Positions 1 through 52,015 of a stretch of 64,000 nucleotides of DNA are shown one piece after another. This stretch comes from Bacteroidales bacterium UBA4893 (GTDB lineage Bacteria; Bacteroidota; Bacteroidia; Bacteroidales; P3), in assembly GCA_002399025.1 (NCBI GenBank), contig DHCV01000027.1, positions 1,023 to 65,022 on the forward strand, written 5' to 3'. A program made the translations under genes and the position numbers. Under the pieces are notes generated by a model, which saw only the letters and a program-made list of their open reading frames with translations, searched no databases and had not been told where the DNA came from. Each line of letters begins with the position of its first letter. Within the stretch, counting starts at the first letter, position 1.

Positions 1-195
1 TATCGCTTTTTATTCATTTTTGGACATATAAATCACGATTTCTATCACTTTTTATTCATTTTTGAACCAAAAATCACGATTTCCACCACTTTTTATTCAT
101 TTTTGGACATATAAATCACGATTTTTATCACTTTTTCTCTATTTTTGGACTAAAAATTACGATTTCCATCACTTTTTATGAATTTTACTGCTTAG
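1..195. repeat. Tandem array of 41-42 bp units, at least 4.7 copies, cut by the window edge (a degenerate extra unit runs to about 231)
   Basis: Unit starts read at 31, 72, 114 and 155 (AATCACGATTTCnAnCACTTTTTATTCATTTTTGGACATATA-like). Bases 1-30 match the 3' part of the unit at 84-113. Confidence 0.85.
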
Positions 196-285
196 AAATC
201 CAGATTTTTGTTCCTATTACTCTTTTACAGCAAGTTAGACTTGCACAATATTATTATTTGGTTAAGCTAAAAAATCTTATCAATA

Positions 286-314
286 TAAAAAATGCAGAAT
301 TGCAAAAATTCTGC
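286..314 (-). terminator. Rho-independent terminator closing the minus-strand pigment operon
   Basis: 8-bp stem GCAGAATT/AATTCTGC (294-301 and 307-314) with a 5-nt loop. On the minus strand it is followed by a T6 run (A-run 287-292 on plus). Confidence 0.6.
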
Positions 315-598
315 GTTATATGTTTTTCTGTAATATTAAAAAGAAATGGAGGTTGTGAAGAGTTGTATTTGTTAAATAGGGAATTTGCTACACATGAGGG
401 GTGATTGCTCTTCAGGGGGAAGCCTTTTTGCCATGTATGTAAGTGGGCACTAAGCATTCTTGTTTGTATTTTATTTCATGTTAAACAACGTGGCAAATCT
501 AATAGATAATTTCCAAACTACCAAATTATTTAAGCGAAAAATACAAAAATATTTCTATCACTCTGAAAATGATAGATTAAAATTCTTTTAAAAACTAA

Positions 599-1363
599 TC
601 ATTTCTTTCTAATAAGCATAGAGAAATAGCCGTAGAATAGGGCGGCTATGGTTAGGAAGGTGTTTAGTAGGCTTATTCTGACGAAATCTTTTGTGGGGCG
701 AAAATGTGATACTCTTTCTTCAAGGGGTGGGTAGTAAACATTGATGGGTTGCTCTATGAGTTTGATGTTTCTCCATGCAATTCGTACTAAGAGTTCGTAT
801 TCGGCTTCGTATCTGTTGTTGAGGGGTTTCATCCTCTTCATCTTTTTTAGGGGGTAGAGCCTGAAGCCTGTTTGTGTGTCGTTTAGTTTTTTGCCTGTTT
901 GGAGCTTGAACCAGAAATTGGAAAACCTATTGGCAAAGCTGTTCTTATTGGGCATATTGGGGTTATTGAAGCTTCGTTGCCCTATGATGAGTGAGTTGGG
1001 ATTATTGGAATAGGCATTTAGTAAAAGGGGGATGTCTTCTGCCAAGTGTTGTCCGTCTGAATCCATTGTTATGGTTGCGTCAAAGCCTTTTTCTCTTGCT
1101 TTTTGAAATCCTTGCTTTATGGCGTAGCCCTTGCCTTTGTTTTTGGGATAGGTGATAAGGGTTATCTTGTCTCTTATTCCTTCTAATATGTTTTTGGTAT
1201 TATCTGTTGAGCCGTCATTGACCACAATTATATCTTTGCAGTAATTCATTGTTGAACTAACTACCTGCTCAATGGTTTTTTCATTGTTATATGTTGGGAT
1301 AAGGATGCAAATCTTTGTTTTTTGCATTTCTTCCTTAATATGTGCAGGTGTTTCTTTGGTCAT
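599..1363 (-). CDS. Family 2 glycosyltransferase (last gene of the aryl-polyene/flexirubin-type cluster)
   Basis: 254-aa ORF with GT-A motifs ILIPTYNNEKTI, VVNDGSTD and MDSDGQH. Its start overlaps the stop of the upstream gene by 1 nt. Confidence 0.85.
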   Translation of the reverse strand: MTKETPAHIKEEMQKTKICILIPTYNNEKTIEQVVSSTMNYCKDIIVVNDGSTDNTKNILEGIRDKITLITYPKNKGKGYAIKQGFQKAREKGFDATITMDSDGQHLAEDIPLLLNAYSNNPNSLIIGQRSFNNPNMPNKNSFANRFSNFWFKLQTGKKLNDTQTGFRLYPLKKMKRMKPLNNRYEAEYELLVRIAWRNIKLIEQPINVYYPPLEERVSHFRPTKDFVRISLLNTFLTIAALFYGYFSMLIRKK

Positions 1364-1734
1364 TAGAGTTGGGTGGTTAGTTCTAAGTTTAGTTTTGAAT
1401 AGGTGGTTTGATTTGCATAAATAGTTGTTGTGGCGCTGTATTCTTTTTCTTTTGGGGATAAGGAAATATCAAATATTATTTCTTGGTTTGAGTCTGGAAT
1501 TATAACATTCAGGAATTTTACGCTCTTAATGAATTTGATATTGAGGTTTGTTTTGAGTGTTTTGGATGCTAATTCTCTAATGATTTCTATTATGCAGGCT
1601 CCTGGGACGATTGGGTTATTGGGGAAGTGAGATAGGAATATTCTATGCTTTTGGTTAAATGAAAGATAATATTTTATATTCATATCATCTTTGATTTCTA
1701 CCTTGTTTATTGAGTAAAAATTGTCCTTTAACAT
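1363..1734 (-). CDS. Hotdog-fold 3-hydroxyacyl-ACP dehydratase (FabZ/FabA-like, ApeP/ApeI-type)
   Basis: 123-aa ORF with the catalytic-His motif HFPNNPIVPGACIIE typical of FabZ-like dehydratases. It lies in the cluster. Confidence 0.75.
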   Translation of the reverse strand: MLKDNFYSINKVEIKDDMNIKYYLSFNQKHRIFLSHFPNNPIVPGACIIEIIRELASKTLKTNLNIKFIKSVKFLNVIIPDSNQEIIFDISLSPKEKEYSATTTIYANQTTYSKLNLELTTQL

Positions 1735-1736
1735 GT

Positions 1737-2372
1737 TTATTTTATGGTGAAGATTTGTTTGGGGATTGGGCTATTCTTTTTCTTGTCGGAAAATGTAATT
1801 GTGGTTATGTCTCCGTTCTTTTCGTCCATTTGGATTATGTCGGCAAGGTTGGTTTTGGTGTCGATGGTTATGGTTATGGTATTAAACATCGATTTTAATC
1901 TTCTGTTAAGAGGCATCATCTTAACAATTAGCAATCCTTTGTCGTTGGTGTAGAAATCGGAATTGAAGTTTTTGCCTTCCTGAAGTTCCTTTCCACTAAT
2001 AATGCCAATGATAATCTTGCTTATCTCTTGGAACATCTTATTGGAATTGGAATATTCTCCCTGCGAGTTCTTGACTTTTATCTTATCGTTGTTTACAACA
2101 AACATATATTGGGTTGGATGAGTGTTTTCCCATCTCAAAAGATTGGGACTTTCAAAATACATCACCCCTTTTGAAACACTAACTCCACTTAATAGGGAGC
2201 TTTTCTTTTCCTGCTTATAGTTGCATTGGAGCGATTTAACTTCGGAAGATAGTTTCTTAATATAGGTTTCCTTTTCTTTGGCTGATAGTTTCTTCAATCC
2301 TGCTTCCTGTGAGAAAGAAACAAGAGAGCCAAAGATAAATATGCTTAATAGTATTATTCTTTTCATCATCAT
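1737..2372 (-). CDS. LolA-like outer-membrane lipoprotein carrier family protein
   Basis: 211-aa ORF with an N-terminal signal peptide (MMMKRIILLSIFIFGSLVSFSQ). Its size and position match the LolA-like gene standard in aryl-polyene clusters. The family call rests on context and general resemblance only. Confidence 0.6.
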   Translation of the reverse strand: MMMKRIILLSIFIFGSLVSFSQEAGLKKLSAKEKETYIKKLSSEVKSLQCNYKQEKKSSLLSGVSVSKGVMYFESPNLLRWENTHPTQYMFVVNNDKIKVKNSQGEYSNSNKMFQEISKIIIGIISGKELQEGKNFNSDFYTNDKGLLIVKMMPLNRRLKSMFNTITITIDTKTNLADIIQMDEKNGDITTITFSDKKKNSPIPKQIFTIK

Positions 2373-2375
2373 AAT

Positions 2376-2729
2376 CTACTTTACTACAAAAAACACGCCA
2401 ATCATTATTATCAAAACTCCAATCCATCTTGTTAGGGGAATAGGTTCGTGGAAAATAAAGTATGCTGCCGCAAGTCCAATTATATAACTTACGCTCAAAA
2501 GAGGATATGCCAAGCTAAACTGATAGTTTTTCAGGACATACATCCAAGTTAGCATTGCTCCCAAAGCACAAATTCCCGATGCTGCGAACTGCCATGTTGT
2601 GAATACTGTTTTGAAATAGCTTAGACTCCATGAGAATTTACCGAAGCTTTGAACCGATAATTTCAAGAAAGCTTGAGCGGCTACTAAAAGCACACTTTGT
2701 CCTAAGATTAAACCTGCAAGTTTTAGCAT
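2376..2729 (-). CDS. Small integral membrane protein (about 4 TM, EamA/SMR-like), function unknown
   Basis: 117-aa ORF that is almost entirely hydrophobic helices. It is tightly packed between cluster genes and overlaps the upstream stop by 7 nt. Confidence 0.6.
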   Translation of the reverse strand: MLKLAGLILGQSVLLVAAQAFLKLSVQSFGKFSWSLSYFKTVFTTWQFAASGICALGAMLTWMYVLKNYQFSLAYPLLSVSYIIGLAAAYFIFHEPIPLTRWIGVLIIMIGVFFVVK

Positions 2730-3784
2730 TTTGATAAGAGTATGAATGAATGTTCGCTGTTTTGGAAATGATTATAGATCAATATATGTTTGGGATTTAG
2801 GATTTCCTTTGGGGAATCAAATACCAAATGTTTAGGGATAATATTTTTCTTTAAGCATGTTGCTCCAATATAAAACCCTAACCCACTCATTGAGAAACTC
2901 TCTCCAAACAAATGCTTATACCAGACAAAAGGAATATCATTAAAGAGATTTTCCTTAGTCTTGGAATAAACCTCATCATTTTCCTTATCTCCACTATGAC
3001 CAACAAGAACAGCATCAATATCCGACAAGGTTAGATTATTCTCTTCCAAAAGTCTTTTGAGGGTTTCTTCCAACTTTTCTTTTGTTGGCTTATGCAGAAT
3101 ATTCATCCCAGCCAATGAACATATTGAATCCTCATTCTTTTCATTGCTAAGGAAAGAACTTACAGCAACCTCTCCAGAGAACGACCCCAAAGTTTCAGAT
3201 TTCCTTAGGGTTTCCACACAAATATCGCCTTTTTTCCAATAGCCTATCTTATCATACAAGGTAAACATATCCTTAGTCATTTCGTCGTGAGCTCCAACCA
3301 AGGCATTAGTTATCTTATTCAGCTTAAATTGTAAAAAGGCATCAAACAAAGCACTCTCAAACGAAATTCCGCGATGAACATAGGTTGAATTATAGTTATT
3401 ACATTTTAGTTCCAAAGCTATTTGAGAGCTAATTGTGTTGTGAGTTGATTGTATAAAATAGGTTGGAGTGAGAAGGGTTTCGTTGTTTTCCAGCATTGAA
3501 TAAAGAAACTTTTCTGTGTTTTCAATACATCCCAAACCAGTTGCAGTTATTATTGCGTCAATCTCGTTTCCCTTTCTTCCTTGCAAAACATTAAGTGAGG
3601 TTGTTACTGCACGCTTTAATATCCTGCCCATACGTCTTGAAGACATTGGGTTAATGTATTGCTTATAGTTTGGTTCTATTGAGGAAACATATCTCTGTCT
3701 ATGATAAATAGGGCTCTCAAACCAATTATCACAAAGAGGCTCTTGAATGGAAATTTGAGATATGGATTGAATATATATAGCCAT
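2723..3784 (-). CDS. Beta-ketoacyl synthase-like protein lacking the Cys-His-His triad (chain-length-factor-type partner subunit)
   Basis: 353-aa ORF directly downstream of a true KS (2-nt gap). It is thiolase-like in length but has no TACSS/AHGTGT/GHT motifs. Confidence 0.65.
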   Translation of the reverse strand: MAIYIQSISQISIQEPLCDNWFESPIYHRQRYVSSIEPNYKQYINPMSSRRMGRILKRAVTTSLNVLQGRKGNEIDAIITATGLGCIENTEKFLYSMLENNETLLTPTYFIQSTHNTISSQIALELKCNNYNSTYVHRGISFESALFDAFLQFKLNKITNALVGAHDEMTKDMFTLYDKIGYWKKGDICVETLRKSETLGSFSGEVAVSSFLSNEKNEDSICSLAGMNILHKPTKEKLEETLKRLLEENNLTLSDIDAVLVGHSGDKENDEVYSKTKENLFNDIPFVWYKHLFGESFSMSGLGFYIGATCLKKNIIPKHLVFDSPKEILNPKHILIYNHFQNSEHSFILLSKC

Positions 3785-3785
3785 C

Positions 3786-4988
3786 TTAGATTATCTTTGA
3801 GAATATGCAAGAAGAGTCGTTTCCGCCAAAGCCAAAGGAGTTTGTCATTATATGTTTGATGTTTGGCAATTGAATTGTTCTTTGAGCAGGGACCAAATCA
3901 ACATCTTCCATTGGAGTTTTGAAATTGAGGTTGGCAGGAATAAAATTATTCTTAAGTGCAAGAATGGATATTACTGACTCAACTGAACCAGCAGCACTTG
4001 TTGTGTGTCCTGTGAAGGATTTGGTTGAGGAAACATAGGGTGGATTTTCTCCAAAGACCCTCTTAATCGCTGAGGCTTCACTCGAATCATTATTATCTGT
4101 TCCTGTCCCATGAGCATTAATATAGTCAATATCTTCTGCTGAAAGCCCACTATCTTCCAATGCTCTTTTCATTGACAGAAAAGCACCCTGACCATCGGGT
4201 GAAGAAGCCGTTTGATGAAAAGCATCACAAGTATTTGCATATCCGCTAAGCTTACAAATTGGCTCAACTCCCCTTTCCTTTGCCGATTCCATTCCCTCCA
4301 AAACAATATATGCAGCACCCTCACCCAAGTTCAGCCCTTGACGGTTCTTGTCAAAAGGTTTGCAAGCCTCCTTATCCAAAATCATAAGAGTGTTGAACCC
4401 ATTGAGATGAAACTTACTCAAACATTCAGTTCCTCCCACCACTGCAATATCAACATATCCTGCCTTAATTAGGTTTGCACCAAGAATAATTGCATTGGCA
4501 GCCGAAGAACAAGCTGTGGAAATTGTTGTTATGAAATCAAACCCTCCAAAATAATCCGCAATATCCTGAGTTGAGGCAGCACAATCGTGAAGAGAAATAT
4601 ACTCATCCTTAGAATTATTCTGGAAAAACTCCAAATAGAACTCCTCGTTCTTCTCCATTCCACCAACAGTTGTCCCACTTATGAAAGCAATCCTTTTGGG
4701 AGTATCCTTATCTATCTTGGCTTGCTCCAAAGCCTCTCTTAGGGCAAGCATTCCAAGAAGGGTTGTTCTGGTTAGAGGATTTTGGGGATTATAATTTAAC
4801 AAAGAAAGCATATCTTTGTCGCTCAATCTTACTTCGCTGACCGGAAGCGAAGAATGAATGGTGTTCAAGTGTTTCAATTCCCCAATGGCTGAGTTCTGAT
4901 TAATCAAGGATTGAAGAGTTTCATCCTTTCCCAATCCCAAACCAGTGAGAATACCCATTGCCGTAACAAGAATATCGTTCAAAGCCAA
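3786..4988 (-). CDS. Beta-ketoacyl-ACP synthase (FabF-like KS)
   Basis: 400-aa ORF with the active-site Cys motif TISTACSSAANAI, His motifs INAHGTGT and GHTTSAAG, and C-terminal SFGFGGNDSS. Confidence 0.9.
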   Translation of the reverse strand: MALNDILVTAMGILTGLGLGKDETLQSLINQNSAIGELKHLNTIHSSLPVSEVRLSDKDMLSLLNYNPQNPLTRTTLLGMLALREALEQAKIDKDTPKRIAFISGTTVGGMEKNEEFYLEFFQNNSKDEYISLHDCAASTQDIADYFGGFDFITTISTACSSAANAIILGANLIKAGYVDIAVVGGTECLSKFHLNGFNTLMILDKEACKPFDKNRQGLNLGEGAAYIVLEGMESAKERGVEPICKLSGYANTCDAFHQTASSPDGQGAFLSMKRALEDSGLSAEDIDYINAHGTGTDNNDSSEASAIKRVFGENPPYVSSTKSFTGHTTSAAGSVESVISILALKNNFIPANLNFKTPMEDVDLVPAQRTIQLPNIKHIMTNSFGFGGNDSSCIFSKII

Positions 4989-4991
4989 AAC

Positions 4992-5249
4992 CTATTTCTT
5001 TCTGTTGTTCTTAATGTACTCTGCCATTACGCTAACACTCTTGAAAATCTCCTTTCCCTGAGCAGCATTTTCTAATTTAATGCCGTAGTTCTTTTCGAGC
5101 AAAACAATAAGCTCTAAGGCATCAATAGAATCCAAGCCCAAACCTTCACCAAACAAAGGAGCATTGCTGTCAATATCCTCAGGAGTTATTTCTTCAAGAT
5201 TTAAAACTTCAATAATCTCTTTTTTAAGCTCTAATATTAAATCTTCCAT
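4992..5249 (-). CDS. Acyl carrier protein
   Basis: 85-aa ORF with the phosphopantetheine attachment motif LGLDSIDALEL. Confidence 0.9.
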   Translation of the reverse strand: MEDLILELKKEIIEVLNLEEITPEDIDSNAPLFGEGLGLDSIDALELIVLLEKNYGIKLENAAQGKEIFKSVSVMAEYIKNNRKK

Positions 5250-5327
5250 ATAATTAAATAAGTTTTTTATTTGTATAACTTGATAATATGTCCGAACCGA
5301 TAGTAATTACTACCTAATTCTCAATTA

Positions 5328-5335: not shown

Positions 5336-5471
5336 CAAAATAATTCTCAATAACCTAAATAAAGAGTTTTTTTGTTAAGTCAAACACAGATTATTCATAC
5401 ATTAAGCAAGGATTTTTCACTCAAATAATAAATCATTGTATAAGGTATTTGAAATTATCCCCTATATAAAT

Positions 5472-5662
5472 TTATTTTTCTCTGAGATAGTTATTTTTTT
5501 CTCTGAGATAATTTGAAATAAGTCCCGTTTATTTTTGTCTAAGCTTAGTTTATTTTTTTAGAATCAAGTTTTAATTTATTAGAATCAAGTTTTAATTTAT
5601 TAGAATCAAGTTTTAATTTATTAGAATCAAGTTTTAATTTATTAGAATTTGATTCTAATAAA
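5472..5662. repeat. 21-bp-period tandem array: degenerate units 5472-5558, then four perfect copies of TAGAATCAAGTTTTAATTTAT (5559-5642), ending in a hairpin at 5638-5662
   Basis: Perfect unit starts at 5559, 5580, 5601 and 5622. The terminal inverted repeat TTTATTAGAAT/ATTCTAATAAA encloses the stop codon of the 5655 gene. Confidence 0.9.
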
Positions 5663-6308
5663 TGGTCTTTATATTCTCTATATTGAAATTATTAACCTTA
5701 GTGTTCTTCTTAAGGGCAAACATCAATACATCAATATTATTATCTCCGTCTTCAACCCAACCACATAGCAAATTCTCTATGGAATCGTTGGAAAGTGCAT
5801 CTATGGAATATTGATAGAGGTGGTGTGGTGAGAAATCTTTGTGGACAAAGAAAAGTGTTTCGCCCATTATCTTGTTTCTTATGGCTATTTCGCCTGTAAC
5901 TATGTTTGCCAAGGTGTAAACAAAGACTGATGGGGAAGGAAAATAGTTATTGGTGTCTTGTATGGTTTGTTGATAGTTCTTGTCGGTTTCCAATGAGGAA
6001 GAGCTGTTCATAGATATGATTGACCATTTGGGTTTTGGTTCCAAAGGGTCAATATTAAGGCTTCGCATTATTATTTCGGAGGCAAGAAATCCTGCCTTTG
6101 AGAGTGTGTCCATCTTAAAATACTTCGGATAGTCTATCTTTTGGCTTTTGTATATGTTGGTTAGCCAAGATGTGTTTTCTCTTAATGGTATTTCCAACTC
6201 TTCTCCATTAAGCAAAACCTTTGTATTGGTTATCCTGCACCACGATTTTATTTCAATATTTATCATATCCCGATTTTTCAAACATAATTGCTGCATTGCT
6301 TCCTCCAA
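5655..6308 (-). CDS. Small KS-associated protein (ApeC-like chain-length-factor-type partner)
   Basis: 217-aa ORF. The likely true start is the ATG at 6266 (MINIEIKSW), which overlaps the upstream KS stop by 14 nt (ATGATAAATATTGA). The motif PSPSVFVYTLANIVTGEIAI resembles the small KS-like subunits of aryl-polyene clusters, recognised from memory. Confidence 0.55.
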   Translation of the reverse strand: MEEAMQQLCLKNRDMINIEIKSWCRITNTKVLLNGEELEIPLRENTSWLTNIYKSQKIDYPKYFKMDTLSKAGFLASEIIMRSLNIDPLEPKPKWSIISMNSSSSLETDKNYQQTIQDTNNYFPSPSVFVYTLANIVTGEIAIRNKIMGETLFFVHKDFSPHHLYQYSIDALSNDSIENLLCGWVEDGDNNIDVLMFALKKNTKVNNFNIENIKTIY

Positions 6309-18203: not shown

Positions 18204-18205
18204 AA

Positions 18206-34171: not shown

Positions 34172-34376
34172 ATAATAAAACAATAAAAATCAAAATATTT
34201 ACTCTTCAATAATCAATTTTTAACTTATGTACACTCATAAAGTTAAAATGAAGTTATGTGATTTTCATGCAATTATCTTCTTGTCTCCAATTATTATTTT
34301 GACAAAAAAACAACGAAAATCTTAATAAAAAATGAATAATACTTGTTGTAAGGATAGAAGTATAAATTGATTGATT

Positions 34377-34431
34377 AAAACGAAGAGTTAGTAAATTAAA
34401 ACGAAGAGTTAGTAAATTCTTTCTTCGTTTT
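34377..34431. repeat. Two perfect 21-bp units AAAACGAAGAGTTAGTAAATT followed by an inverted half-word CTTCGTTTT
   Basis: The units are at 34377-34397 and 34398-34418, and the inverted word is at 34423-34431. The same 21-mer recurs at 44055-44075. Confidence 0.9.
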
Positions 34432-34511
34432 AAAAATTTAAAATCAAGTTTTAATTTTTGCTTAGAATGTAACTCCAGTAGTAAACTTTATTGCAAAGAT
34501 TATCAAATTAC

Positions 34512-35787: not shown

Positions 35788-36368
35788 TATTTATTTCCTC
35801 CTATATTTTTTGGTTCAGCTTCAGAGATTGCAGTTGGAATAGCCTTATCAATAGCATCTCTTTGCTCTTCTGTGCAATCTGTGTATGCTCTGCCAAATCT
35901 TGCTCTTGACAATTCATCTTTCAACTCATTGATTGCAGCAGTCAGCTCATTCTGAACCTTGAAATACATATCGTAAGATGTTCCTCTATCATTTTGTAGA
36001 GAAATAACACCTTTAGAAACCTCAAATCTACCAATCAATGGTATATCTGTTGTTGTTTTCTCAGGCAAGTTCTGAAGATTCTGAGGATTTGACAAGAACT
36101 CTTTAGCTCTTTCTTTTAATCCTGTAATCTGTCCAACTTGTCCATCAAATAAAAGCTGGTCTGCACGATTTACCTTGACAGTAAATGTATTCCTCTTGTG
36201 TATTTCAGGTTTTTCAGTTTTATCATCCGATGGCGGTGGCAATCGTCTTTGAATTCCTAAATCCGTATTAATTGATGATGTTAATAGGAAGAAAGTAAGC
36301 AAAAGAAACGAAATATCCGCTGATGACGAACTATTCAACTGAGGAATCTCTTTTTTCTTTCTTGCCAT
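35787..36368 (-). CDS. exbD: ExbD/TolR family biopolymer transport protein (second copy)
   Basis: 193-aa ORF with an N-terminal TM (ADISFLLLTFFLLTSSI) and operon context. Confidence 0.8.
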   Translation of the reverse strand: MARKKKEIPQLNSSSSADISFLLLTFFLLTSSINTDLGIQRRLPPPSDDKTEKPEIHKRNTFTVKVNRADQLLFDGQVGQITGLKERAKEFLSNPQNLQNLPEKTTTDIPLIGRFEVSKGVISLQNDRGTSYDMYFKVQNELTAAINELKDELSRARFGRAYTDCTEEQRDAIDKAIPTAISEAEPKNIGGNK

Positions 36369-36369
36369 T

Positions 36370-36822
36370 TTATTTTAATTTTTTTGCTATTTCTGAATAT
36401 AAAGCAGCTATAACAACACCTATCATAAGTACATAAACAGCATATAGAGAACCTCCAATTAGTTTGGAATTTCCATAACTAGAACCTGTCTTTTCAAACA
36501 ATTCCACTGGGATATCTGTTCCTGATGCAAATAAATAAGTACCTACTAATAGGATTATCATTGCAGCAAATGCAATAATAATTTTCATTTGTTTTTTTGG
36601 ATTGTCCATAAAGCCTTTGATAATAAAGCCTAATGCAAATCCCAAAGCAGAAATAATACTTATAGCTAAAAATATTACAACTGTCCAATAGGATAAATTC
36701 CAAAATAATTGAGCAAGGCTAGTATTATTGAAAAATACTGCATACAAAAAGCTACATAAAGAAGCTAATGTACCCCAAATTATTACGATTATCCAATATA
36801 TTTTCTTAAAATCATTTTTCAT
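36370..36822 (-). CDS. Small 4-TM membrane protein of the ExbB-ExbD operon, function unknown
   Basis: 150-aa hydrophobic ORF between exbB and exbD. This is a common arrangement in Bacteroidota. Confidence 0.6.
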   Translation of the reverse strand: MKNDFKKIYWIIVIIWGTLASLCSFLYAVFFNNTSLAQLFWNLSYWTVVIFLAISIISALGFALGFIIKGFMDNPKKQMKIIIAFAAMIILLVGTYLFASGTDIPVELFEKTGSSYGNSKLIGGSLYAVYVLMIGVVIAALYSEIAKKLK

Positions 36823-40167: not shown

Positions 40168-40281
40168 TAAAAGTTTTTTAGAAATATGTAAATAAACTCT
40201 CTCTGTGCATATTTTTTTCAAATTATTCCCTTTTTGGGGGATAAAAGAAATTCAGAAAAAAATATACGAGACTTATTTGAA

Positions 40282-40344
40282 ATTATCTCAGAGAAAAATA
40301 AAATTATCTCTGACAAAAAATAAATTATCTCTGACAAAAATTTA
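40282..40344. repeat. Three 21-bp tandem units ATTATCTC(A/T)GA(G/C)AAAAA(T)AAA
   Basis: Units at 40282-40302, 40303-40323 and 40324-40344. The segment 40271-40302 is the near-exact reverse complement of 5491-5523. Confidence 0.85.
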
Positions 40345-40543
40345 AAAGGTCGGCAGATAATTTTATTTATACAAGAAGATTTTTTCCTTTTGTTAAAGTT
40401 TAGCGAGATTTTGGAAGAAAGATTTTTCAAAATAATAAATTAGGAATATGAAATTAAGAACAAGAAAATGCGTATTTCTGAATTAAATTATTTTCAATTA
40501 ATATATTATTTGTACTTTTGTCAATTATATTTTTAGCAAAACC

Positions 40544-43889: not shown

Positions 43890-43947
43890 ACCCCTATTTA
43901 ATTAAAAATAAGCTCCGACTTTTTTTGCGTAAGTCAAGTTTATTTTC

Positions 43948-43993
43948 AAATAACCTTAGTTTATTTTTCACTAAACTAAGGTTATTTTTTTGG
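43948..43993 (+). terminator. Rho-independent terminator after dsbD
   Basis: 16-bp stem AAATAACCTTAGTTTA/TAAACTAAGGTTATTT (43948-43963 and 43972-43987) followed by a T run. Confidence 0.75.
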
Positions 43994-44012
43994 ATTGAGA
44001 ATTAGGGAAATT

Positions 44013-44096
44013 AAAACCTCGTTTTAGTAAATTAACTCTTCGTTTCAGTAGATTAAAACGAAGAGTTAGTAAATTAAAATAAGGTTTCATTTTTCA
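44013..44096. repeat. Four 21-bp units of the shared-word family, with units 2 and 3 forming a 12-bp-stem hairpin
   Basis: Units: AAAACCTCGTTTTAGTAAATT (44013), AACTCTTCGTTTCAGTAGATT (44034), AAAACGAAGAGTTAGTAAATT (44055) and AAAATAAGGTTTCATTTTTCA (44076). AACTCTTCGTTT pairs with AAACGAAGAGTT. Confidence 0.85.
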
Positions 44097-44148
44097 GAAG
44101 CCTATTATTTATATATGTCAATTTAAGAGCTATTAGGATAAAAACTTG

Positions 44149-45881: not shown

Positions 45882-45930
45882 CAATAATATTAGGAAACTT
45901 TGCTTAACCTATTTCTTATTTCAATTTATC

Positions 45931-46035
45931 AGAATAAGGTTTTAGAAAATTAAAATCAAGTTATACGGAAATAGAATCAAGTTTTAGTAAATTAGAATCA
46001 AGAGATAAAAAATTAAAACTTGATTAAAAATTTTC
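45931..46035. repeat. Five 21-bp units of the shared-word family in the mnmA/dnaE divergent spacer
   Basis: Units start at 45931, 45952, 45973, 45994 and 46015: AGAATAAGGTTTTAGAAAATT, AAAATCAAGTTATACGGAAAT, AGAATCAAGTTTTAGTAAATT, AGAATCAAGAGATAAAAAATT and AAAACTTGATTAAAAATTTTC. The last carries the inverted word CTTGATT. Confidence 0.85.
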
Positions 46036-46222: not shown

Positions 46223-49200
46223 ATGGCAAAATTTACTCATCTTCACGTTCACTCTCAATATTCTATCTTGGATGGGGCTGCAAGTATTTCTGGTTTGATT
46301 AATAGGGCAAAAGAGCTTTCAATGAATGCTTTGGCAATAACAGATCATGGTAATTTATATGGTGTTTTTGATTTTCATACTATGGCTCTTAAGAATGGCA
46401 TTAAGCCATTGATTGGGAGTGAGGTTTATGTTGCAAGAGAAAGTCGTTTTAAGAAAGATGGAAGGAATTTTAGTGGAGATCATCTAATACTAATTGCCAA
46501 AAATGCAAAGGGTTATCAGAATTTAATGAAGCTAAGTTCACTTTCTTTTGACCCAAAATCATTTTATCGTACTTCGAGAATTGACAAAGAACTCCTCTTT
46601 GAATATAGCGAAGGGTTGATTTGTTCCTCTGCATGTTTGGGAGGTATTGTCCCTCAGTATATTCTTTCAAATAATATTGAGGATGCTGAAAAAACTGTTC
46701 AGGAATACAAGAGTGTTTTTGGGGATGATTACTATTTGGAAATTCAGAATCATGGTTTAGAAGAGCAGGCTATGGTCAAAGAAAAGATAATTGAAATTGC
46801 AAAGAAATATGAAGTAAAGGTTATTGCAACTAATGATGTTCATTATATTAATTCTACTGATTTTGATGCTCATAAGATTTTGATTTGTCTTAATACTGGT
46901 CAAAAGCTTAGCGAATATTCTAAAATGCATTATACAGGCTTAGAGTATTTTAAGTCTCAAGAAGAGATGGAAGAATTGTTTGCTGATATTCCTGAGGCTA
47001 TTTCAAACACTCAAGAGATTGTTGACAAGGTTGAGGAATATCCACTGAAACGTGACCCAATCTTACCGGTTTTTGATATACCAAATAGCTTTGGACTAAT
47101 TGAAGATTTTATTAAAAAGTATCCTAAGGAGGAAATTGAAAAAGAGTTATCTGAAGAGGAAATAACTAAAAAAGGAGGATATGAAAAGATAATAAGAACA
47201 AGGTTTGAGTTTGAGTATTTAAAACATTTGACTTTCAATGGAGCTAAGAAGAAATATGGAGAAGAATTATCTGATGAGTTGATAGAAAGAATTGATTTTG
47301 AACTCTCAACCATAAATAATATGGGCTACCCTGGCTATTTTCTAATTGTTCAAGATTTTATCAACTATTCACAAGACCATTTAGGTGTTATTGTTGGTCC
47401 GGGTAGAGGTTCTGCAGCTGGAAGTGTTGTGGCTTATTGTCTGGGAATCACTGCAATTGACCCTATTAAATATGGACTTCTTTTTGAAAGATTCTTAAAT
47501 CCTGATAGAGTTTCATTGCCCGATGTTGATGTTGATTTTGATGATGAAGGAAGAGCAAGAGTTTTGGAGTATGTTCAAGAGAAATACGGTTCTGCACATG
47601 TTGCTCAAATCATTACTTTCGGTGCTATGGCTGCTAAAAGTTCAATTAGGGACGTTGCAAGAGTTTTAGAACTTCCTCTTCCAGAGTCTGACAGATTGGC
47701 TAAATTGGTTCCTGATAAACCTGGAACAACTTTAGAAGAAGCATATAAGGACGTTCCTGAGCTTAGAGATGCTCTTGAAAATGGAACAGAATTGGTTAAA
47801 AAGACTTTAAAGTTTGCAAAGGAGCTTGAAGGCTCAATAAGAAATATTGGTACTCATGCATGTGGAGTTATAATTGGTCCTGATGATCTTTCAAAATATA
47901 TTCCTTTGGCTACAGCAACTGCAAAGGATGAGCAATCCATAATAACACAATTTGAAGGAAAGATTGTTGAGGATGTAGGAATGATTAAGATGGACTTTTT
48001 GGGACTTAAAACACTTTCCATAATAAAAGATGCTTGTGCCAATATTCAAAAATCTCATCAAATTCATATTAATCCTCGCGAAATTCCATTGGATGACAAA
48101 CCAACTTTTGAACTTTTCCAAAGAGGAGATTCTATAGGGACTTTCCAATTTGAAAGCGATGGGATGAGGCAGCATATGCAAAATCTAAAGCCCGATAGGT
48201 TTGAGGATTTAATTGCAATGAATGCCCTATATCGTCCTGGTCCAATGCAATATATTCCTAACTATATAGCAAGAAAACATAAAAGAGAAAAGATAGTCTA
48301 CGATATTCCAGAGATAATGGAGAAATACTTAGGTGAAACCTATGGAATTACAGTTTATCAAGAACAGGTTATGCAGCTTTCACAAGCAATTGCTGGATTT
48401 ACAAAAGGACAGGCCGATACCCTTCGTAAGGCAATGGGGAAAAAGCAAAAAAAGGACATGGACGTATTGAAAGAGAAGTTTTTGGATGGCAGTAAGGAAA
48501 GAGGACACGATAAAGATTTAATTGAAAAGATTTGGCATGATTGGGAAAAGTTTGCCGAATATGCTTTTAATAAATCTCATTCCACTTGCTATGCCTACAT
48601 TGCTTATCAAACCGCATGGTTAAAAGCACATTATCCAGCAGATTTTATGTCTTCAGTGTTAACTCATAACCTAAGTGATATTAAGAAGATTACCTATTAT
48701 ATTGAGGAGGCTCAAAGGCTAAAGATTTCTGTTCAAGGACCAGATATAAATGAATCAGAAATAAATTTTGCAGTAAACAAAAAGGGAGAAATCCGTTTTG
48801 GACTTGCTGCAATTAAGAGTGTTGGAGTTAATGCAGCACAAGAAATAATTAGGGAAAGAGATGAGAATGGACCTTTTCTATCTCCATTTGACTTCATAAG
48901 AAGGGTAAATGTTAATAAAAGATGTATTGAGGCATTAGTAAGTGCTGGCTCATTTGATAGCTTTACCAAGTATCATAGAGCACAATATTTTAACAAGGTA
49001 AAAACAGCTAATAACGACGAAATAACTATTATTGAGAAATTGGTTATATATGGAAACAAGATTAAGAATAATGAAAATTCTTCACAAGTTTCCTTATTTG
49101 AAGATAGTATTGAAGAAACTTACGCTGAACCTGAAATTCCTAATTGTATTGAATGGTCAAAGATCGAAATACTTAAGCAGGAAAAAGAATCAATTGGTTT

Positions 49201-49840
49201 CTATATATCTGGACACCCATTGGATAGGTTTACTTTAGAACAAAAACTATTTGAGAACACAAAACTCTCAGAACTTTCAGAAAGCCTTACTCCATTTGAA
49301 AATAAGATATTATACTTTGTAGGGATGATAACAAACAGCCAGGAAAAATTGACAAAAACTGGCAAAAATTATGGTAGCTTTGTTTTTGAAGACGAAACTT
49401 CAAGTAGAGAGATTACTCTTTTTAGTAAAGATTATATCAACTTCCATAAATATTTGATTGATGGGTTATTCGTCTTACTTAAAGCTACAGTTAAGAAAAA
49501 AGGATGGGGAGATGAAAATAGTAAGGATGCATTAGAATTTAAGATTTTACAAATTGAAGAATTAGATGAGGTGTTGGTTAAGTATGCAAAAGGTATTAAA
49601 TTAGTTATGCCTATTGAAAATGTAAATAATGAATTTGTTGAAAAGGTTTTGAAAGCAGCTAAAAAATCAAAAGGAAATTCTTTAGTCTCTTTCTTTGTTA
49701 TTGATTCAGAAGCAGATGTTGAAGTTACTCTAAAAGCAAGAAAACACATGGTTTCAATCCCTAAGTTTTTGGAAGAGATAAAAGAATATATTGAAAATAG
49801 AACTATTTATTCATATGATGTTGATGTTAGCACAATGTAA
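46223..49840 (+). CDS. dnaE: DNA polymerase III alpha subunit
   Basis: 1205-aa ORF with the PHP domain start FTHLHVHSQYSILDGA, the polymerase core (GRGSAAGSVVAYCLGIT, PDVDVDF) and the OB-fold region. Confidence 0.97.
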   Translation: MAKFTHLHVHSQYSILDGAASISGLINRAKELSMNALAITDHGNLYGVFDFHTMALKNGIKPLIGSEVYVARESRFKKDGRNFSGDHLILIAKNAKGYQNLMKLSSLSFDPKSFYRTSRIDKELLFEYSEGLICSSACLGGIVPQYILSNNIEDAEKTVQEYKSVFGDDYYLEIQNHGLEEQAMVKEKIIEIAKKYEVKVIATNDVHYINSTDFDAHKILICLNTGQKLSEYSKMHYTGLEYFKSQEEMEELFADIPEAISNTQEIVDKVEEYPLKRDPILPVFDIPNSFGLIEDFIKKYPKEEIEKELSEEEITKKGGYEKIIRTRFEFEYLKHLTFNGAKKKYGEELSDELIERIDFELSTINNMGYPGYFLIVQDFINYSQDHLGVIVGPGRGSAAGSVVAYCLGITAIDPIKYGLLFERFLNPDRVSLPDVDVDFDDEGRARVLEYVQEKYGSAHVAQIITFGAMAAKSSIRDVARVLELPLPESDRLAKLVPDKPGTTLEEAYKDVPELRDALENGTELVKKTLKFAKELEGSIRNIGTHACGVIIGPDDLSKYIPLATATAKDEQSIITQFEGKIVEDVGMIKMDFLGLKTLSIIKDACANIQKSHQIHINPREIPLDDKPTFELFQRGDSIGTFQFESDGMRQHMQNLKPDRFEDLIAMNALYRPGPMQYIPNYIARKHKREKIVYDIPEIMEKYLGETYGITVYQEQVMQLSQAIAGFTKGQADTLRKAMGKKQKKDMDVLKEKFLDGSKERGHDKDLIEKIWHDWEKFAEYAFNKSHSTCYAYIAYQTAWLKAHYPADFMSSVLTHNLSDIKKITYYIEEAQRLKISVQGPDINESEINFAVNKKGEIRFGLAAIKSVGVNAAQEIIRERDENGPFLSPFDFIRRVNVNKRCIEALVSAGSFDSFTKYHRAQYFNKVKTANNDEITIIEKLVIYGNKIKNNENSSQVSLFEDSIEETYAEPEIPNCIEWSKIEILKQEKESIGFYISGHPLDRFTLEQKLFENTKLSELSESLTPFENKILYFVGMITNSQEKLTKTGKNYGSFVFEDETSSREITLFSKDYINFHKYLIDGLFVLLKATVKKKGWGDENSKDALEFKILQIEELDEVLVKYAKGIKLVMPIENVNNEFVEKVLKAAKKSKGNSLVSFFVIDSEADVEVTLKARKHMVSIPKFLEEIKEYIENRTIYSYDVDVSTM

Positions 49841-49843
49841 TCG

Positions 49844-50773
49844 ATGGAAAATTATATTGCATTTGATACAATTAAATCATTAGCATTAAAAGCTGGATTT
49901 CAAGACTGTGGAGCAATTGAGATAAAGAAATTTGATATCTCTTTCTTTAAAAATTGGATAGACAGAGGATATAATGCTGATATGCAATATTTAGAAAGAT
50001 ACATTGATATTAGAGAAAATCCTTCTCTCCTACTTGAAAATTCAAAATCTTTAATTAGTTTTATTGTCTCTTACAACATTGAATTACCTGATAACAAAGA
50101 TGATAATATGCTTAAATTTGCTTCTTACAGCCTCTTTAATGACTATCATAAAGCAATTAAACAAGCATTATATGAATTAATTCATTGCATTCAAGATATT
50201 TATCCTAATTTTAAAGCTATTGCATTTGTTGATTCTGCTCCAATTTTAGAAAAAGTTATTGCAAAAGAAGCAGGCTTAGGATGGATTGGCAAAAACTCTT
50301 TATTGATTAATAAAACCTTTGGGAGTAAGATATTAATAGGAGAAATAATTACTAATTTCTCTACTGATTATAATAAAGATATTGAAATAGACTTATGCAA
50401 AGAATGTAATATATGCATTAATTCATGTCCAAACTCAGCAATCCTTAATAATAAAACCATAGATTCAAGGCTTTGCAATTCATATCATACAATTGAAAAC
50501 AAGCATAATATCCCCCCAAATATAAATCTAAACTATTATATTTTTGGTTGTGACATATGCCTTAAAGCCTGTCCTTGGAATAAAAAAGAAATAGAGATAT
50601 CTAAAATATTAACTCTAAACCCTAATATGCAAATATTTGAACAGAATATAAACAAAAAAATAACTGATAAAACAGATTTTAATAAAGCCAATAAGAACTC
50701 CTCTCTCTCAAGGATAAAGTTTTCAAAATTAATTGATAATATCAATCATAATGGGAAAGAAGTACTTCTTTGA
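49844..50773 (+). CDS. queG: Epoxyqueuosine reductase
   Basis: 309-aa ORF with GLGWIGKNSLLI and two 4Fe-4S motifs, CKECNICINSCP and CDICLKACPWN. Confidence 0.88.
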   Translation: MENYIAFDTIKSLALKAGFQDCGAIEIKKFDISFFKNWIDRGYNADMQYLERYIDIRENPSLLLENSKSLISFIVSYNIELPDNKDDNMLKFASYSLFNDYHKAIKQALYELIHCIQDIYPNFKAIAFVDSAPILEKVIAKEAGLGWIGKNSLLINKTFGSKILIGEIITNFSTDYNKDIEIDLCKECNICINSCPNSAILNNKTIDSRLCNSYHTIENKHNIPPNINLNYYIFGCDICLKACPWNKKEIEISKILTLNPNMQIFEQNINKKITDKTDFNKANKNSSLSRIKFSKLIDNINHNGKEVLL

Positions 50774-50787
50774 GTTAATTTACTTAT

Positions 50788-51405
50788 CTAAAATTGATAA
50801 ACAAGCTTTAAATTAGAATAAGAAATTATATCTGAACAAAATATCAAATCAGAGAATAAAGGAAGATTATGCCTTCTCCCTTGACTTAAATCTATATTTA
50901 ATGACGTTCGGAAGATGTGCCATACAAGCTCTGTACAATAAAAAGAAGTTGTGTCTTGCAAATCCATTGAAACATCAAATAACGGACTCCTATATATTAT
51001 TTCTTTCACTTTACTATAAATAAGAATTGTGTCTTCCTGTTGTAAATCTGCTCTGTAAATACCTCCTGACAATGCTTTATCAGTTGCAAAAAACTCTTCT
51101 ATCAACTCAACTTTTATCTTGTCCTTTTCATTCTTATTGCTTTCATTGGGAACTGCATGAACTACTCTCCATGCTGAATCAAACCAAATAACAAGACCTA
51201 CATGAGAATAGATACTCTTTTTATCAATGCCTTTAACAATTTCACTTTCAACACTTTTTCCCTCACGAAAGACTATGTCCCCCGTTTGAAAAACTAAATT
51301 AGAAGGAATTTGCCAGTTATTATGATCTTCTTTACATGAGAAAAATAAGAAACAAACAAAGCAAAACAAGCAAATAACCTTCTTCATTAGTTTAATCAAA
51401 AACAA
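50788..51405 (-). CDS. YiiX-type permuted papain-like (NlpC/P60 superfamily) lipoprotein
   Basis: 205-aa ORF with the lipobox FFSC (a shorter start, MKKVICLF at 51387, is possible). It has the His region SHVGLV and the Cys region FYCTELVW in permuted order. Confidence 0.65.
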   Translation of the reverse strand: MFLIKLMKKVICLFCFVCFLFFSCKEDHNNWQIPSNLVFQTGDIVFREGKSVESEIVKGIDKKSIYSHVGLVIWFDSAWRVVHAVPNESNKNEKDKIKVELIEEFFATDKALSGGIYRADLQQEDTILIYSKVKEIIYRSPLFDVSMDLQDTTSFYCTELVWHIFRTSLNIDLSQGRRHNLPLFSDLIFCSDIISYSNLKLVYQF

Positions 51406-51417
51406 TTTATTTATATA

Positions 51418-51850
51418 TTAAATTGTTTCATCAATTATTTTTCCTGACTGATAACCATTAACTTCTAAAGAACCCAATGTTTTAGGCTCACTTCGAAGTT
51501 CTTCTCTTAGTTTTTTACCTAAACGGAAAGTTACATTAACTCGCTTTATTGTATCGGCATTTGCCTCTTCCAAAGTATTAACGCTTCGAGCATTCAATGT
51601 TACGCTAAACTCTCCAAACTCATCCAAATCAACTCCTCTACCATCTTTAAAATACTTTCCCATTACAAAAAAAGAAATTATCAATAGCATTCTTAATATC
51701 CCCTCTTGAAAGAGAGGACAAGTCAGTCATATCATCATAAATCTGATTAATCTTGACTTTTTTCGTCTTTTTCTTTATTACAAGAAACTTATTTCCGGGA
51801 TTAAGTCCTGTTACGATCTTTCTTAATACCCTGATATACTCTATTGCCAT
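51418..51850 (-). pseudogene. HU-like (Bacteroidota HU_HIG-type) DNA-binding protein gene interrupted by a +1 frameshift in an A7/T7 run
   Basis: ORFs 51647-51850 (MAIEYIRVLRK...AIDNFFF) and 51418-51690 (...VMGKYFKDGRGVDLDEFGEFSVTL...) overlap. Removing one base of the run at 51667-51673 fuses them into one ~144-aa protein that is collinear with the family. Confidence 0.6.
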
Positions 51851-51945
51851 AATTTAAATATTTTTAATTTGTAATTAAATATCTATCTCTTAATGTTACT
51901 AAAATTCCCTCTTTTATCCTCATAATAAGTTTTCAGTACTATTAA

Positions 51946-52015
51946 AACAAGATTATGAGGCTACTATAACAAGATTATGAGGGCTTGAAAAGCTTGTTTT
52001 AGAAGCCTCATAATC
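51946..52015. repeat. Two 22-bp-spaced copies of AACAAGATTATGAGG plus inverted copies CCTCATAAT(C)
   Basis: Direct copies at 51946-51960 and 51968-51982. Inverted copies at 52006-52015 and 51918-51926. Confidence 0.8.

Follow-up and report, generated by a model that had tools for sequence, protein, structure and literature searches.

The 64,000-nucleotide stretch of contig DHCV01000027.1 analysed here (hereafter the window) belongs to Bacteroidales bacterium UBA4893 and has a GC content of ~32%. Its proteins include M6 peptidases sorted by the type IX secretion system (T9SS), DnaE, DnaG, MnmA, DksA and DsbD, together with those of a cluster of acyl carrier protein (ACP), beta-ketoacyl synthase (KAS) and GT2 genes. 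Eight of the 13 spacers of at least 250 bp in the window contain head-to-tail arrays of short repeats with a period of 21 or 22 bp, i.e. about two turns of the helix. Repeats amount to about one fifth of the intergenic DNA of the window, as we estimate from array lengths. They are short dispersed intergenic repeats that fall outside any named family, and the same periods were found in related species and in metagenomes.

Part of a 132.7-kb metagenomic contig (ENA ERZ724041 NODE_42) is identical to the window, which recurs also in other fermentation and digester metagenomes and in two metagenome-assembled genomes (MAGs) at NCBI (GCA_028685615.1 and GCA_029004755.1) with identities of 97.8-99.98%. 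The arrays were identical in independent assemblies and are thus not assembly artefacts. By their MnmA protein, the closest species representatives are uncultured Bacteroidales (92-93% amino-acid identity), followed by Ca. Onthomorpha and termite-gut lineages (~80-86%) and then by Dysgonomonas and Parabacteroides (~77%). Two collections were used for comparison, one of 80 loci centred on MnmA in other species of Bacteroidales (1.40 Mb, of which 132 kb intergenic) searched with Tandem Repeats Finder (TRF), and the other of metagenomic contig stretches that match the exact 21-mer AAAACGAAGAGTTAGTAAATT (272 kb). Numbers preceded by L (e.g. L006, L011, L127) are the compared loci from other strains, species and metagenomes. 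The gene map of the window is a crude one derived from open reading frames (ORFs), and intergenic DNA was defined from it. The most enriched intergenic 8-mers in the window and the spacers of L011-L034 were variant forms of the -7 box of Bacteroidetes promoters (nnCTTTGCA, from TAnnTTTG), confirming the promoter type and validating the crude intergenic map.

Periodic arrays in the spacers of the window

A previous model reading made from the letters of the window and a list of its ORFs (the sequence-only reading) had described arrays with a period of 21-22 bp at several intergenic sites and of 41-42 bp at the left edge. TRF agreed at all of them, with period-21/22 calls at 5549-5648, 18851-18892, 18910-18994, 34374-34418, 40280-40342, 43936-43989, 44008-44079, 45931-46015 and 51939-51982, a 41/42(83)-bp call at 2-209 and an extra two-copy call at 27094-27134. 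The autocorrelation that it had proposed as a check gave peaks at 21, 22 and 42 in the intergenic DNA of the window (160, 56 and 104 6-mer self-matches, respectively). At other lags the self-matches numbered 0-26, with the exception of the further harmonics at 41 (37) and 63 (38), and the signal was drawn from eight independent spacers. The right end of the window (60000-64000) has the lowest GC content (~27%) and its long spacers at 62098-62591 and 63045-64000 are devoid of 21-bp periodicity, indicating that some long AT-rich spacers are uncolonised. The features are listed below, F1 to F4 being the four AT-rich families of units described in the next section.

1-231, no strand: tandem array of a 41/42-bp unit (83-bp dimer), ~4.5-5 copies, truncated by the window edge (TRF scores 251-292); a separate family with helix-phased A/T runs (29 and 27 self-matches at lags 41 and 42, 0 at lag 21)
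5446-5560, minus strand: mosaic of 21-bp modules, F2 TTATCTCAGAGAAAAA (reverse), F4 ACGGGACTTATTT (reverse) and F3 TAAGnnnAGTTTATTTTT; inverted copy of the 40241-40346 block (inverted repeat I1, 106 nt, 76%)
5549-5665, plus strand: F1 array of 4.8 copies of AGAATCAAGTTTTAATTTATT, the core of the last unit flipped (TRF 97% matches, score 186); long hairpin over the stop codon of ORF 5655-6308 (5590-5675, plus strand, fold -28.6 kcal/mol, z -8.6)
18851-18892, plus strand: two F1-like 21-bp units, AAAACGAAGTTTAGAACTTTT and AAAACAGGGATTAGAACTTTT (TRF)
18910-18997, no strand: 22-bp array of four copies with an invariant 13-15-bp palindromic core AATCATGcCATGA(TT) and variable 9-nt spacers, with a LigB gene on one side and an extracytoplasmic function (ECF) sigma gene on the other
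19000-19137, plus strand: degenerate spacer tail; AAACGAAG at 19004 and 19046, with TCAAG/CTTGA forming a small hairpin
27091-27136, minus strand: two-copy 21-bp array TATTTTATTAAAACCTTATTC, which reads as AGAATAAGGTTTTA-type F1 units on the opposite strand (TRF), in a convergent spacer; new with respect to the sequence-only reading (inverted repeat I5 with 45919-45954, 83%)
34373-34460, plus strand: F1 array of two AAAACGAAGAGTTAGTAAATT units, a flipped-core CTTTCTTCGTTTT and one AAAATCAAGTTTTAATTT; on the minus strand, a terminator-like hairpin 3' of a methyltransferase gene
40241-40346, plus strand: five 21-bp modules, F4 and then three F2 TTATCTCWGASAAAAA, in the divergent dksA / M23-peptidase spacer
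43909-43992, plus strand: four F3 modules TAAGnnnnGTTTATTTTTnnn, the last two with mutually inverted words that make an intrinsic terminator after the DsbD gene (fold -17.2 kcal/mol, z -5.0)
44008-44100, plus strand: four F1 units forming a near-palindrome, cores CCTCG and TCTTC versus GAAGA and TAAGG (inverted repeat I6, 38-nt arms; fold -28.7 kcal/mol, z -7.1), in a 21-bp register continuous with the F3 block
45919-46035, plus strand: five F1 units, the last with the flipped core AAAACTTGATT; spacer of the divergent genes mnmA and dnaE
51939-52015, minus strand: two copies of a 22-bp unit (CCTCATAATCTTGTT...) and an inverted copy, within a strain-variable island (inverted repeat I9); hairpin immediately 3' of ORF 52026-52406 (51925-52030, minus strand, fold -29.7 kcal/mol, z -5.6)

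The sequence-only reading had seen the units as pairs of half-words drawn from a common pool. All the half-words were found at the coordinates given for them, as was the exact 21-mer AAAACGAAGAGTTAGTAAATT at 34377, 34398 and 44055. The described chimera of two other units was confirmed at 45973. The limits that it gave to the tracts were too short in two cases, since 5435-5665 and 43909-44097 are each 9-10 units long in an exact 21-bp register. The word AAACGAAG is over-represented as claimed (11 occurrences versus 1.44 expected, a number that none of 100 shuffles reached), but only 8 of the 11 are intergenic, three matches in coding sequence (10450, 39793 and 59196) having been overlooked. 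Another word, TTAGTAAATT, occurs 6 times versus 0.98 expected, and no shuffle reached 6.

Families, cores and register

The notion of a dispersed family with a shared vocabulary stands, but not that of a single sequence family. The AT-rich units fall into at least four families (F1-F4), and the arrays at 1-231, 18910-18997 and 51939-52015 are unrelated to them and have only the period in common. Each family has one rigid module length of 21, 22 or occasionally 23 bp (~two helical turns). Units of 41-44 bp are also present, and the 44-bp arrays at L025:15205 and L121:338 consist of two 22-bp modules per unit. In each module a core, short and either palindromic or clamped by A/T, surrounds a free centre of 1-5 nt and is followed by a linker of 8-9 nt, as in F1 AAAAC-NNN(NN)-GTTT plus CAGTAAATT. 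The F1 consensus, AAAAC-N3-5-GTT[TA][CA]AGTAAATT, includes the first halves AAAACGAAGAG, AGAATCAAGTT and AAAACCTCGTT and the TTAGTAAATT-type second halves of the sequence-only reading. The others are F2 (TTATCTCAGAGAAAAATAAAA), F3 (TAAGnnnAGTTTATTTTTnnn) and F4 (ACGnGACTTATTTnAAA).

When 5435-5665 and 43909-44097 are written in rows of 21, the register remains unbroken along the tract though the type of unit changes. A block of 106 nt made of F4 and F2 modules is found in opposite orientations at 5448-5553 and 40241-40346 (76%). One further copy of this F2/F4 composite was found in the compared loci, and the boundaries of the element could not be drawn. In the 22-bp array at 18910-18997 the 13-bp core ATCATG-c-CATGA is constant in the four copies and the 9-nt spacers differ. 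Many units in the relatives have the same structure, a palindrome of 13-16 bp with a centre of 1-3 nt and a variable spacer of 7-9 nt (AAAGATG-tg-CATCTTT, AAACAT-cgt-ATGTTT, CAAAACG-c-CGTTTTG and GATAAT-nnn-ATTATC are examples), each array having its own unit. Arrays of 22 bp built on GATAAT-N3-ATTATC, whose hexamers are Fur-box-like, were found with five copies each at different loci of two species (L023:8638-8770 and L025:15183-15300). The longest array, at L097:2463-2737, has 12.6 copies of the 22-bp TTAGAATTATTTTCAACAGGCG, which combines a conserved CAACAGGCGTT part with a variable AT-rich one.

The centres of the cores appear in both orientations, GAAGA/TCTTC and TCAAG/CTTGA in F1 and GCC/GGC and CCC/GGG in the ATCAT...ATGAT family, and a TG/CA centre is flipped between orthologous units of L011 and L012. 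Replacement of the centre of a hairpin by its reverse complement is the footprint of hairpin-mediated template switching (quasi-palindrome mutagenesis). The shuffling of half-words proposed before is real and is explained by a core (the first half) with a centre that flips or varies independently of the conserved linker (the second half).

Distribution in related species and metagenomes

Confinement of the arrays to the window would have spoken against the sequence-only reading, and they are not confined to it. In the intergenic DNA of the 80 relatives' loci the arrays called by TRF numbered 30, 14 and 5 at periods 21, 22 and 23, respectively, with a total of 8 for periods 16-20, 1 for periods 24-40 and harmonics at 42-44, and the peak at 21-23 was specific to intergenic DNA. 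The spacers of the window, of its closest relatives and of the group with 80-86% identity all show maxima in the fraction of matching bases at lags 21, 42 and 63; in the Dysgonomonas/Parabacteroides group the rise is only marginal, and at lags 10-11 and 31-32 no group showed a peak. Arrays of period 21-23 (plus 41-44) are also much denser in the close clade, 34 in ~28 kb of spacer versus 10 in ~65 kb in the distant group. The word AAACGAAG is, after the -7 box, among the top enriched intergenic 8-mers clade-wide, with 13 spacers versus ~1 expected.

The exact 21-mer AAAACGAAGAGTTAGTAAATT retrieved 37 metagenomic stretches corresponding to 29 distinct loci. One of them (L093) is the window locus and another (L111) a lone match within an ORF; the other 27 are F1 arrays in register with 3-5 units each, many of them at contig ends. 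The F1 loci frequently adjoin F2, F3 or F4 modules, ordered as they are in the window. At least 11 of the loci with the 21-mer come from one assembly and have similar coverage. In the metagenomic collection (272 kb) the TRF calls were 47 at period 21, 9 at period 22 and zero at 20 or 23. The 21-mer was absent from 2.9 million viral contigs, for which reason a phage origin was rejected. A 15.5-kb mnmA contig (L021) has at its two ends (48-171 and 15330-15456) the same pair of 21-bp arrays in mutually inverted copies, so that either the assembly was broken by dispersed repeats or a segment is bracketed by inverted arrays.

Families richer in GC are dispersed as well. The ATCATGSCATGAT family was found at three unrelated loci, 5' of the ECF sigma gene in the window, at L127:8102-8190, where a hypothetical gene and TrkH converge on the spacer, and at L121:338-438. 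A composite of ~200 nt with four GGTGGCAGGATGT units is located in the DsbD-Exo spacer of L011 and 5' of dprA in L124. At the orthologous DsbD-Exo spacer the arrays differ among the window, L011, L012 and L014, and the core promoter (TAAATTTG -7 box) alone could be aligned.

Unit turnover and constraint on module length

The comparison of related genomes showed that arrays gain and lose units and turn over between species. Strain L006 has exactly one 21-bp unit fewer at 34374, and in strain L007 there are 6 substitutions within the 60 bp of 45919-45978 versus 3 in the other ~9.5 kb. Along with this turnover, the length of the module is kept. The spacing between the anchors of consecutive F1 units was exactly 21 in 50 of 54 junctions and 42 in the remaining four, that of ATCATGSCATGA was exactly 22, 44 or 66 bp and that of GGCAGGATG 22 bp in 6 of 6. 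Only 9 of 74 F1 neighbours fitted a shifted register better, each scoring a mere 11-13 of 21. The 58 distinct F1 units contain 398 positions that differ from the seed, and the non-array intergenic DNA of two sibling species has 21 indels per 213 substitutions (0.10). Some tens of length changes are thus expected among the F1 units if the differences were independent, a number that shared ancestry lowers, although not to zero.

The cores remain invariant while the neighbouring spacers diverge, in the array at 18910-18997 of the window as well as in the relatives and in the metagenomic arrays. From the combination of invariant cores, scrambled spacers and rigid length we infer that the core is recognised, and the module length gauged, by some factor.

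Genomic context, hairpins and curvature

The genes next to the arrays are housekeeping ones such as those for ACP, dksA, DsbD, mnmA, dnaE, dprA and TrkH. The intergenic location reported by the sequence-only reading was upheld. When the F1 loci are oriented on the 21-mer, 6 are in convergent spacers, 5-6 in divergent ones, 2 in co-directional spacers in the sense orientation and 5 in co-directional spacers in antisense. Ten loci have a negative and 10 a positive local GC skew, and the two gene strands are used evenly. In the close clade there are 1.76 arrays per kb in co-directional spacers, 1.15 in convergent and 0.61 in divergent ones, a modest excess in spacers that contain the 3' end of a gene. 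This orientation-neutral context speaks against a dedicated function as promoter, terminator or RNA and fits elements that act at the level of DNA irrespective of orientation. The small-RNA role raised by the sequence-only reading is not borne out; the orientation of the arrays is random relative to genes, and Rfam models at gathering and E<=1 thresholds gave nothing relevant, with no tRNA or tmRNA. Tandem promoters were also rejected, as by inspection the units do not have the TAnnTTTG/TTTG geometry of Bacteroidetes and a sigma-70 scan was at the level of shuffles. For the ATCATGSCATGAT array an ECF-sigma operator was considered and rejected, the family being present also in a convergent spacer and at another unrelated locus. 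Transposition of the IS200/IS605 type through single strands, for which a bias towards the lagging-strand template was expected, was rejected too, given the 10:10 ratio of F1 orientation versus GC skew and the absence of a gene-strand bias.

Hairpins arise where a unit carries the reverse complement of the core of its neighbour. The inverted copies at the ends of arrays do give stable hairpins, as had been claimed, with folds of -28.6 to -29.7 kcal/mol at three sites. At 43948-43987, after the DsbD gene, two adjacent F3 units form a terminator with 16 pairs and a T-run, and 34398-34435 on the minus strand is plausibly an intrinsic terminator as well. Some inverted module pairs are canonical terminator hairpins, but a dedicated terminator role does not fit, because all types of spacer are occupied. 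The stop codon (5655-5657) of ORF 5655-6308, which has no Pfam match, lies inside the terminal F1 hairpin (5638-5662), so changes in the array could alter the C-terminus of the protein.

Curvature had been suggested for the 21-bp arrays and was rejected on the measure of AA/TT phasing. The AA/TT phase vector at 10.5 bp gave z values of -1.1, -1.8, -1.3, -1.3 and +0.8 in these arrays, at or below shuffled controls, and one isolated z of 2.7 was found in 43909-44097 at period 11.0. The A/T runs in 5477-5665, 40241-40345 and 43909-44097 are periodic at 21 bp and not at 10.5 bp. Curvature is predicted solely for the 41/42-bp array, which at 1-186 has four A/T runs per unit and an AA/TT phase z of 9.8 at 10.5 bp and is probably bent DNA.

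Comparison with known repeats

The closest described element is BrickBuilt of P. gingivalis, an intergenic 23-nt head-to-tail minisatellite that doubles as a transposable element of the miniature inverted-repeat type (MITE), without spacers and with 19 dispersed copies (Klein et al. 2015, PMC4596501). These copies are non-identical, their repeat number varies by locus and strain and the host range is limited; a sister element with 41-nt repeats exists, and strain W83 has tandem direct repeats of 22, 23 and 41 nt (PMC4596501). The likeness is evident, as both belong to the same order, Bacteroidales, and both are intergenic and dispersed with units of about two turns, and the 41-nt family is akin to the 41/42-bp array found here. 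The coincidence of periods (two and about four turns) within one order is striking. In contrast to BrickBuilt, we found many families (21, 22 or 23 bp) mixed in one register and short palindromic cores that flip. No constant leader or tail like those of BrickBuilt was seen here, the flanks of the F1 arrays at the metagenomic loci being unrelated and the array edges decaying into degenerate units. Its IS5-like terminal inverted repeats (TIRs), GAGACCTTTGCA and TGCAAAGGTCTC, gave 4 matches at <=2 mismatches, all in genes, versus 5.2 expected.

The second analogue is the REP/BIME/REPIN group of high-copy, extragenic short palindromes, arranged in tandem or inverted clusters and associated with the RAYT (TnpA_REP) transposases (PMC6006769, PMC3733652). 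Our arrays are likewise high-copy, extragenic and dispersed (8 of 13 long spacers, 29 metagenomic loci), and they resemble REP/BIME also in forming mosaics, in their enrichment at gene 3' ends, in the differences between species, in breaking assemblies and in REPIN-like hairpins of inverted pairs. However, their cores are palindromes of 13-16 bp with a centre of 1-5 nt, against imperfect palindromes of 20-40 nt in REPs, they have far shorter and weaker stems (5-7 bp) and a mainly direct head-to-tail arrangement at a fixed 21/22-bp pitch in place of inverted doublets, and no GT[AG]G or CGTC tag was found in F1, ATCATGSCATGAT, AAGATGyrCATCTT or the other families. The missing tag and the fixed direct pitch exclude canonical REPs. 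A subclass of TnpA_REP specific to Bacteroidetes (2.6) is associated with 'atypical' REPs, and its genes are reported to have on their flanks weak structures that lack a tag and recur elsewhere in the genome (PMC6006769), which makes a link with RAYTs attractive. A protein search seeded with the E. coli RayT gave solely enterobacterial proteins among the 120 matches listed and thus did not reach the RAYTs of Bacteroidales.

Several other types of repeat were tried. As the sequence-only reading had concluded, the arrays are not CRISPRs, in which repeats of 24-48 bp alternate with unique spacers of similar length; here the units abut or are 7-9 nt apart, and the neighbouring proteins scanned have no cas domains. 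A MITE was also rejected, since the F1 loci have no shared termini and in the repeat scan no pair of TIRs bracketed an array. For plasmid-type iterons a single array by a rep gene or origin was expected, and the arrays flank housekeeping genes.

Pneumococcal BOX elements (boxA-(boxB)n-boxC) and the NIME/dRS3 of Neisseria are intergenic mosaics put together from a small set of short modules, the internal units varying in number. They differ from the arrays here in having modules of 45-150 bp of no common helical-turn-related length, and there is no sequence relationship. Iterons, the lambdoid OR/OL operators and the repeats bound by AraC/XylS and PhoB have conserved cores of 13-17 bp with a short variable spacer; the 3-5 copies are spaced by about 21-23 bp, which places the bound proteins on one helical face. 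Unlike the present arrays, found in dozens of housekeeping spacers including convergent ones, they occupy one dedicated locus by the cognate gene or origin. The literature gave no described 21-bp intergenic periodicity in Bacteroidetes beyond BrickBuilt. The statement that the family is undescribed has to be qualified: BrickBuilt and REP/BIME are close analogues, although the arrays could not be assigned to either.

Other features of the window

The ACP / beta-ketoacyl synthase / GT2 gene cluster is at 599-5250 on the minus strand and was domain-scanned only at its end genes; we take it to resemble flexirubin or aryl-polyene-type lipid biosynthesis clusters. Two neighbouring large peptidases of the M6 family (immune inhibitor A-like) with T9SS C-terminal sorting domains are encoded at 27130-34136, and one of them has also MAM and fn3 domains. 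The strain-variable island at 50788-54357, flanked by queG and an S49 peptidase gene, contains genes for a C92 peptidase, an HU-HIG DNA-binding protein and an AraC-type regulator as well as small and hypothetical ORFs. It is missing from the MAG L004 and from the syntenic loci L011-L013, and L014 is without its marker genes. In addition, substitutions among otherwise near-identical strains are clustered, with ~15-30 within 300 bp of exbD (ExbD genes, 35958-36370), and L004 has a divergence of ~10% over the 3' end of dnaE and queG (49000-50588). Both clusters look like recombination tracts from diverged lineages.

Origin and possible function of the arrays

The arrays gain and lose units in tandem, flip their cores, form mosaics in register and copy blocks to non-orthologous spacers, all with a rigid module length and with indifference to context. 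We tentatively favour, with a confidence somewhat short of an even chance, that they represent a clade-wide superfamily of REP/BIME-like and BrickBuilt-like semi-selfish modular intergenic repeats of low-GC uncultured Bacteroidales, with cores that are read by a putative protein. Such semi-selfish DNA would be amplified locally by slipped-strand events or unequal exchange, and it could spread between spacers either by ectopic recombination through common modules or with the help of a mobilising enzyme. A sequence-specific protein reading the core at a fixed distance, be it this mobilising enzyme or a DNA-binding protein of the host, would maintain both the invariant cores and the fixed length. 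As a by-product, neighbours with inverted cores would make hairpins followed by T-rich linkers, some of which may serve as intrinsic terminators. The core-reading protein, and the module length as a functional distance, are what we infer from the pattern of conservation in the sequence.

Some observations weigh against this interpretation. No Y1/HUH transposase was detected by motif search or with a RAYT profile hidden Markov model (best E 0.54) in ~1.85 Mb of Bacteroidales loci, which cover only a small share (a few per cent) of each genome. No obvious TIRs or target duplications were seen, in agreement with what the sequence-only reading had noted, and the array edges fade into degenerate modules. 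The F1 stem AAAAC/GTTTT is very weak, which makes its recognition as a hairpin doubtful, and the lack of strand bias argues against an IS200/IS605-like transposition. Moreover, rigid spacing and palindromic half-sites with a free centre are equally expected from a dimeric protein of the host that binds every two turns. This last point leads to the main rival, that the arrays are platforms for host proteins, i.e. operator arrays bound cooperatively on one face of the helix by a dimeric or oligomeric regulator or a nucleoid protein, with one pair of protomers per two turns as in lambdoid tripartite operators, the direct repeats of AraC/XylS or PhoB, or iterons. Selection on gene regulation or on the organisation of the chromosome, in place of selfish spread, would keep them. 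It would explain equally well the half-sites and the two-turn spacing, that is half-sites that are invariant with the centre and the inter-site spacer free, at exact distances of 22 bp (ATCATGSCATGA, GGCAGGATG) or 21 bp (F1). The recurrence of core motifs across species (GATAAT-N3-ATTATC in L023 and L025, AAGATGyrCATCTT in L011-L014), the position of many arrays 50-300 bp 5' of TAnnTTTG promoters of the Bacteroidetes type and the 13 clade spacers with AAACGAAG where ~1 was expected also speak for it. However, promoterless convergent spacers are occupied too (L127:8102-8190 and 6 of ~19 F1 loci), sibling species swap families at orthologous spacers, no regulator gene is consistently adjacent, and the breaking of contigs at arrays together with exact 21-mers at dozens of loci are more typical of copy-and-paste than of independent operators. 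It explains the convergent copies, the orthologous family swaps and the copy-and-paste identity less well than semi-selfish repeats do, and we regard it as unlikely.

It is less probable still that the arrays are passive minisatellites, generated in AT-rich spacers by slippage and unequal recombination without any protein reader, 21-22 bp being the shortest unit that recombines efficiently and ectopic gene conversion spreading it. Strains that differ by exactly one unit, perfect young arrays such as 5549-5648 (97% matches), the fast turnover between species and the indifference to orientation and context are all consistent with such a process, but the periods are too sharp (30, 14 and 5 arrays at 21, 22 and 23 versus 1 at 20 and none at 24 or 25), different families hold one register, and old arrays keep invariant cores and exact length beside scrambled spacers. 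Besides, the seeding of new non-orthologous loci would be left unexplained. We find it quite improbable that the modules are there as terminators or insulators, bricks that would be half-terminators (a stem arm plus a T-tract) from which duplication and inversion build uni- or bidirectional intrinsic terminators and protective hairpins at 3' ends, chiefly to serve termination and mRNA stability. The adjacent F3 pair at 43948-43987 is a canonical terminator, hairpins lie directly 3' of stop codons at 5638-5662, 34398-34435 (minus strand) and 51943-52023, and arrays are 2-3 times denser per kb where the spacer contains a gene 3' end. Nevertheless, divergent spacers hold 7 of the 32 arrays in close relatives and 5-6 F1 loci, the orientation is random relative to the upstream gene, and most units are direct repeats that form no hairpin, with F1 stems of A/T only. 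The least credible of all, to the point of being nearly discounted, is intrinsically curved DNA, in which the 21-bp period would keep A-tracts helix-phased and produce planar bends organising promoters or the nucleoid. A period of two helical turns and the z of 9.8 at 10.5 bp of the array at 1-186 would be in its favour, but the AA/TT phasing of the 21-bp arrays is at or below shuffled controls at 10-11 bp, bar the one z of 2.7 (period 11.0), and lag peaks at 10-11 or 31-32 are missing.

Short dispersed repeats are, to our knowledge, well characterised in Proteobacteria (REP/BIME/REPIN with their RAYTs) and hardly so in Bacteroidales, where BrickBuilt is the sole described case. The interest of the arrays resides less in this window than in the clade-wide rule, since a single strict length of two helical turns governs many unrelated families of repeats across a clade of gut and digester Bacteroidales. 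Such a rule suggests a specific molecular ruler, either a mobilising enzyme or a DNA-binding protein. The arrays are a natural source of terminators and regulatory variation. They also break metagenomic assemblies, and their copy-number variation among strains could be of use as a typing marker; annotation pipelines currently ignore them. On a broader and more speculative view, which we consider rather unlikely, a family of proteins with a two-turn footprint would read, and possibly propagate, dozens of families of short palindromic cores in a lineage of Bacteroidales, rebuilding most long spacers as 21/22-bp mosaics in register, either as a new class of REP-like mobile DNA with a mobilising enzyme of its own or as a chromatin-like organiser of intergenic DNA. 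If this were true, BrickBuilt and the other 22-, 23- and 41-nt repeats of P. gingivalis would count as peripheral representatives of that phenomenon.

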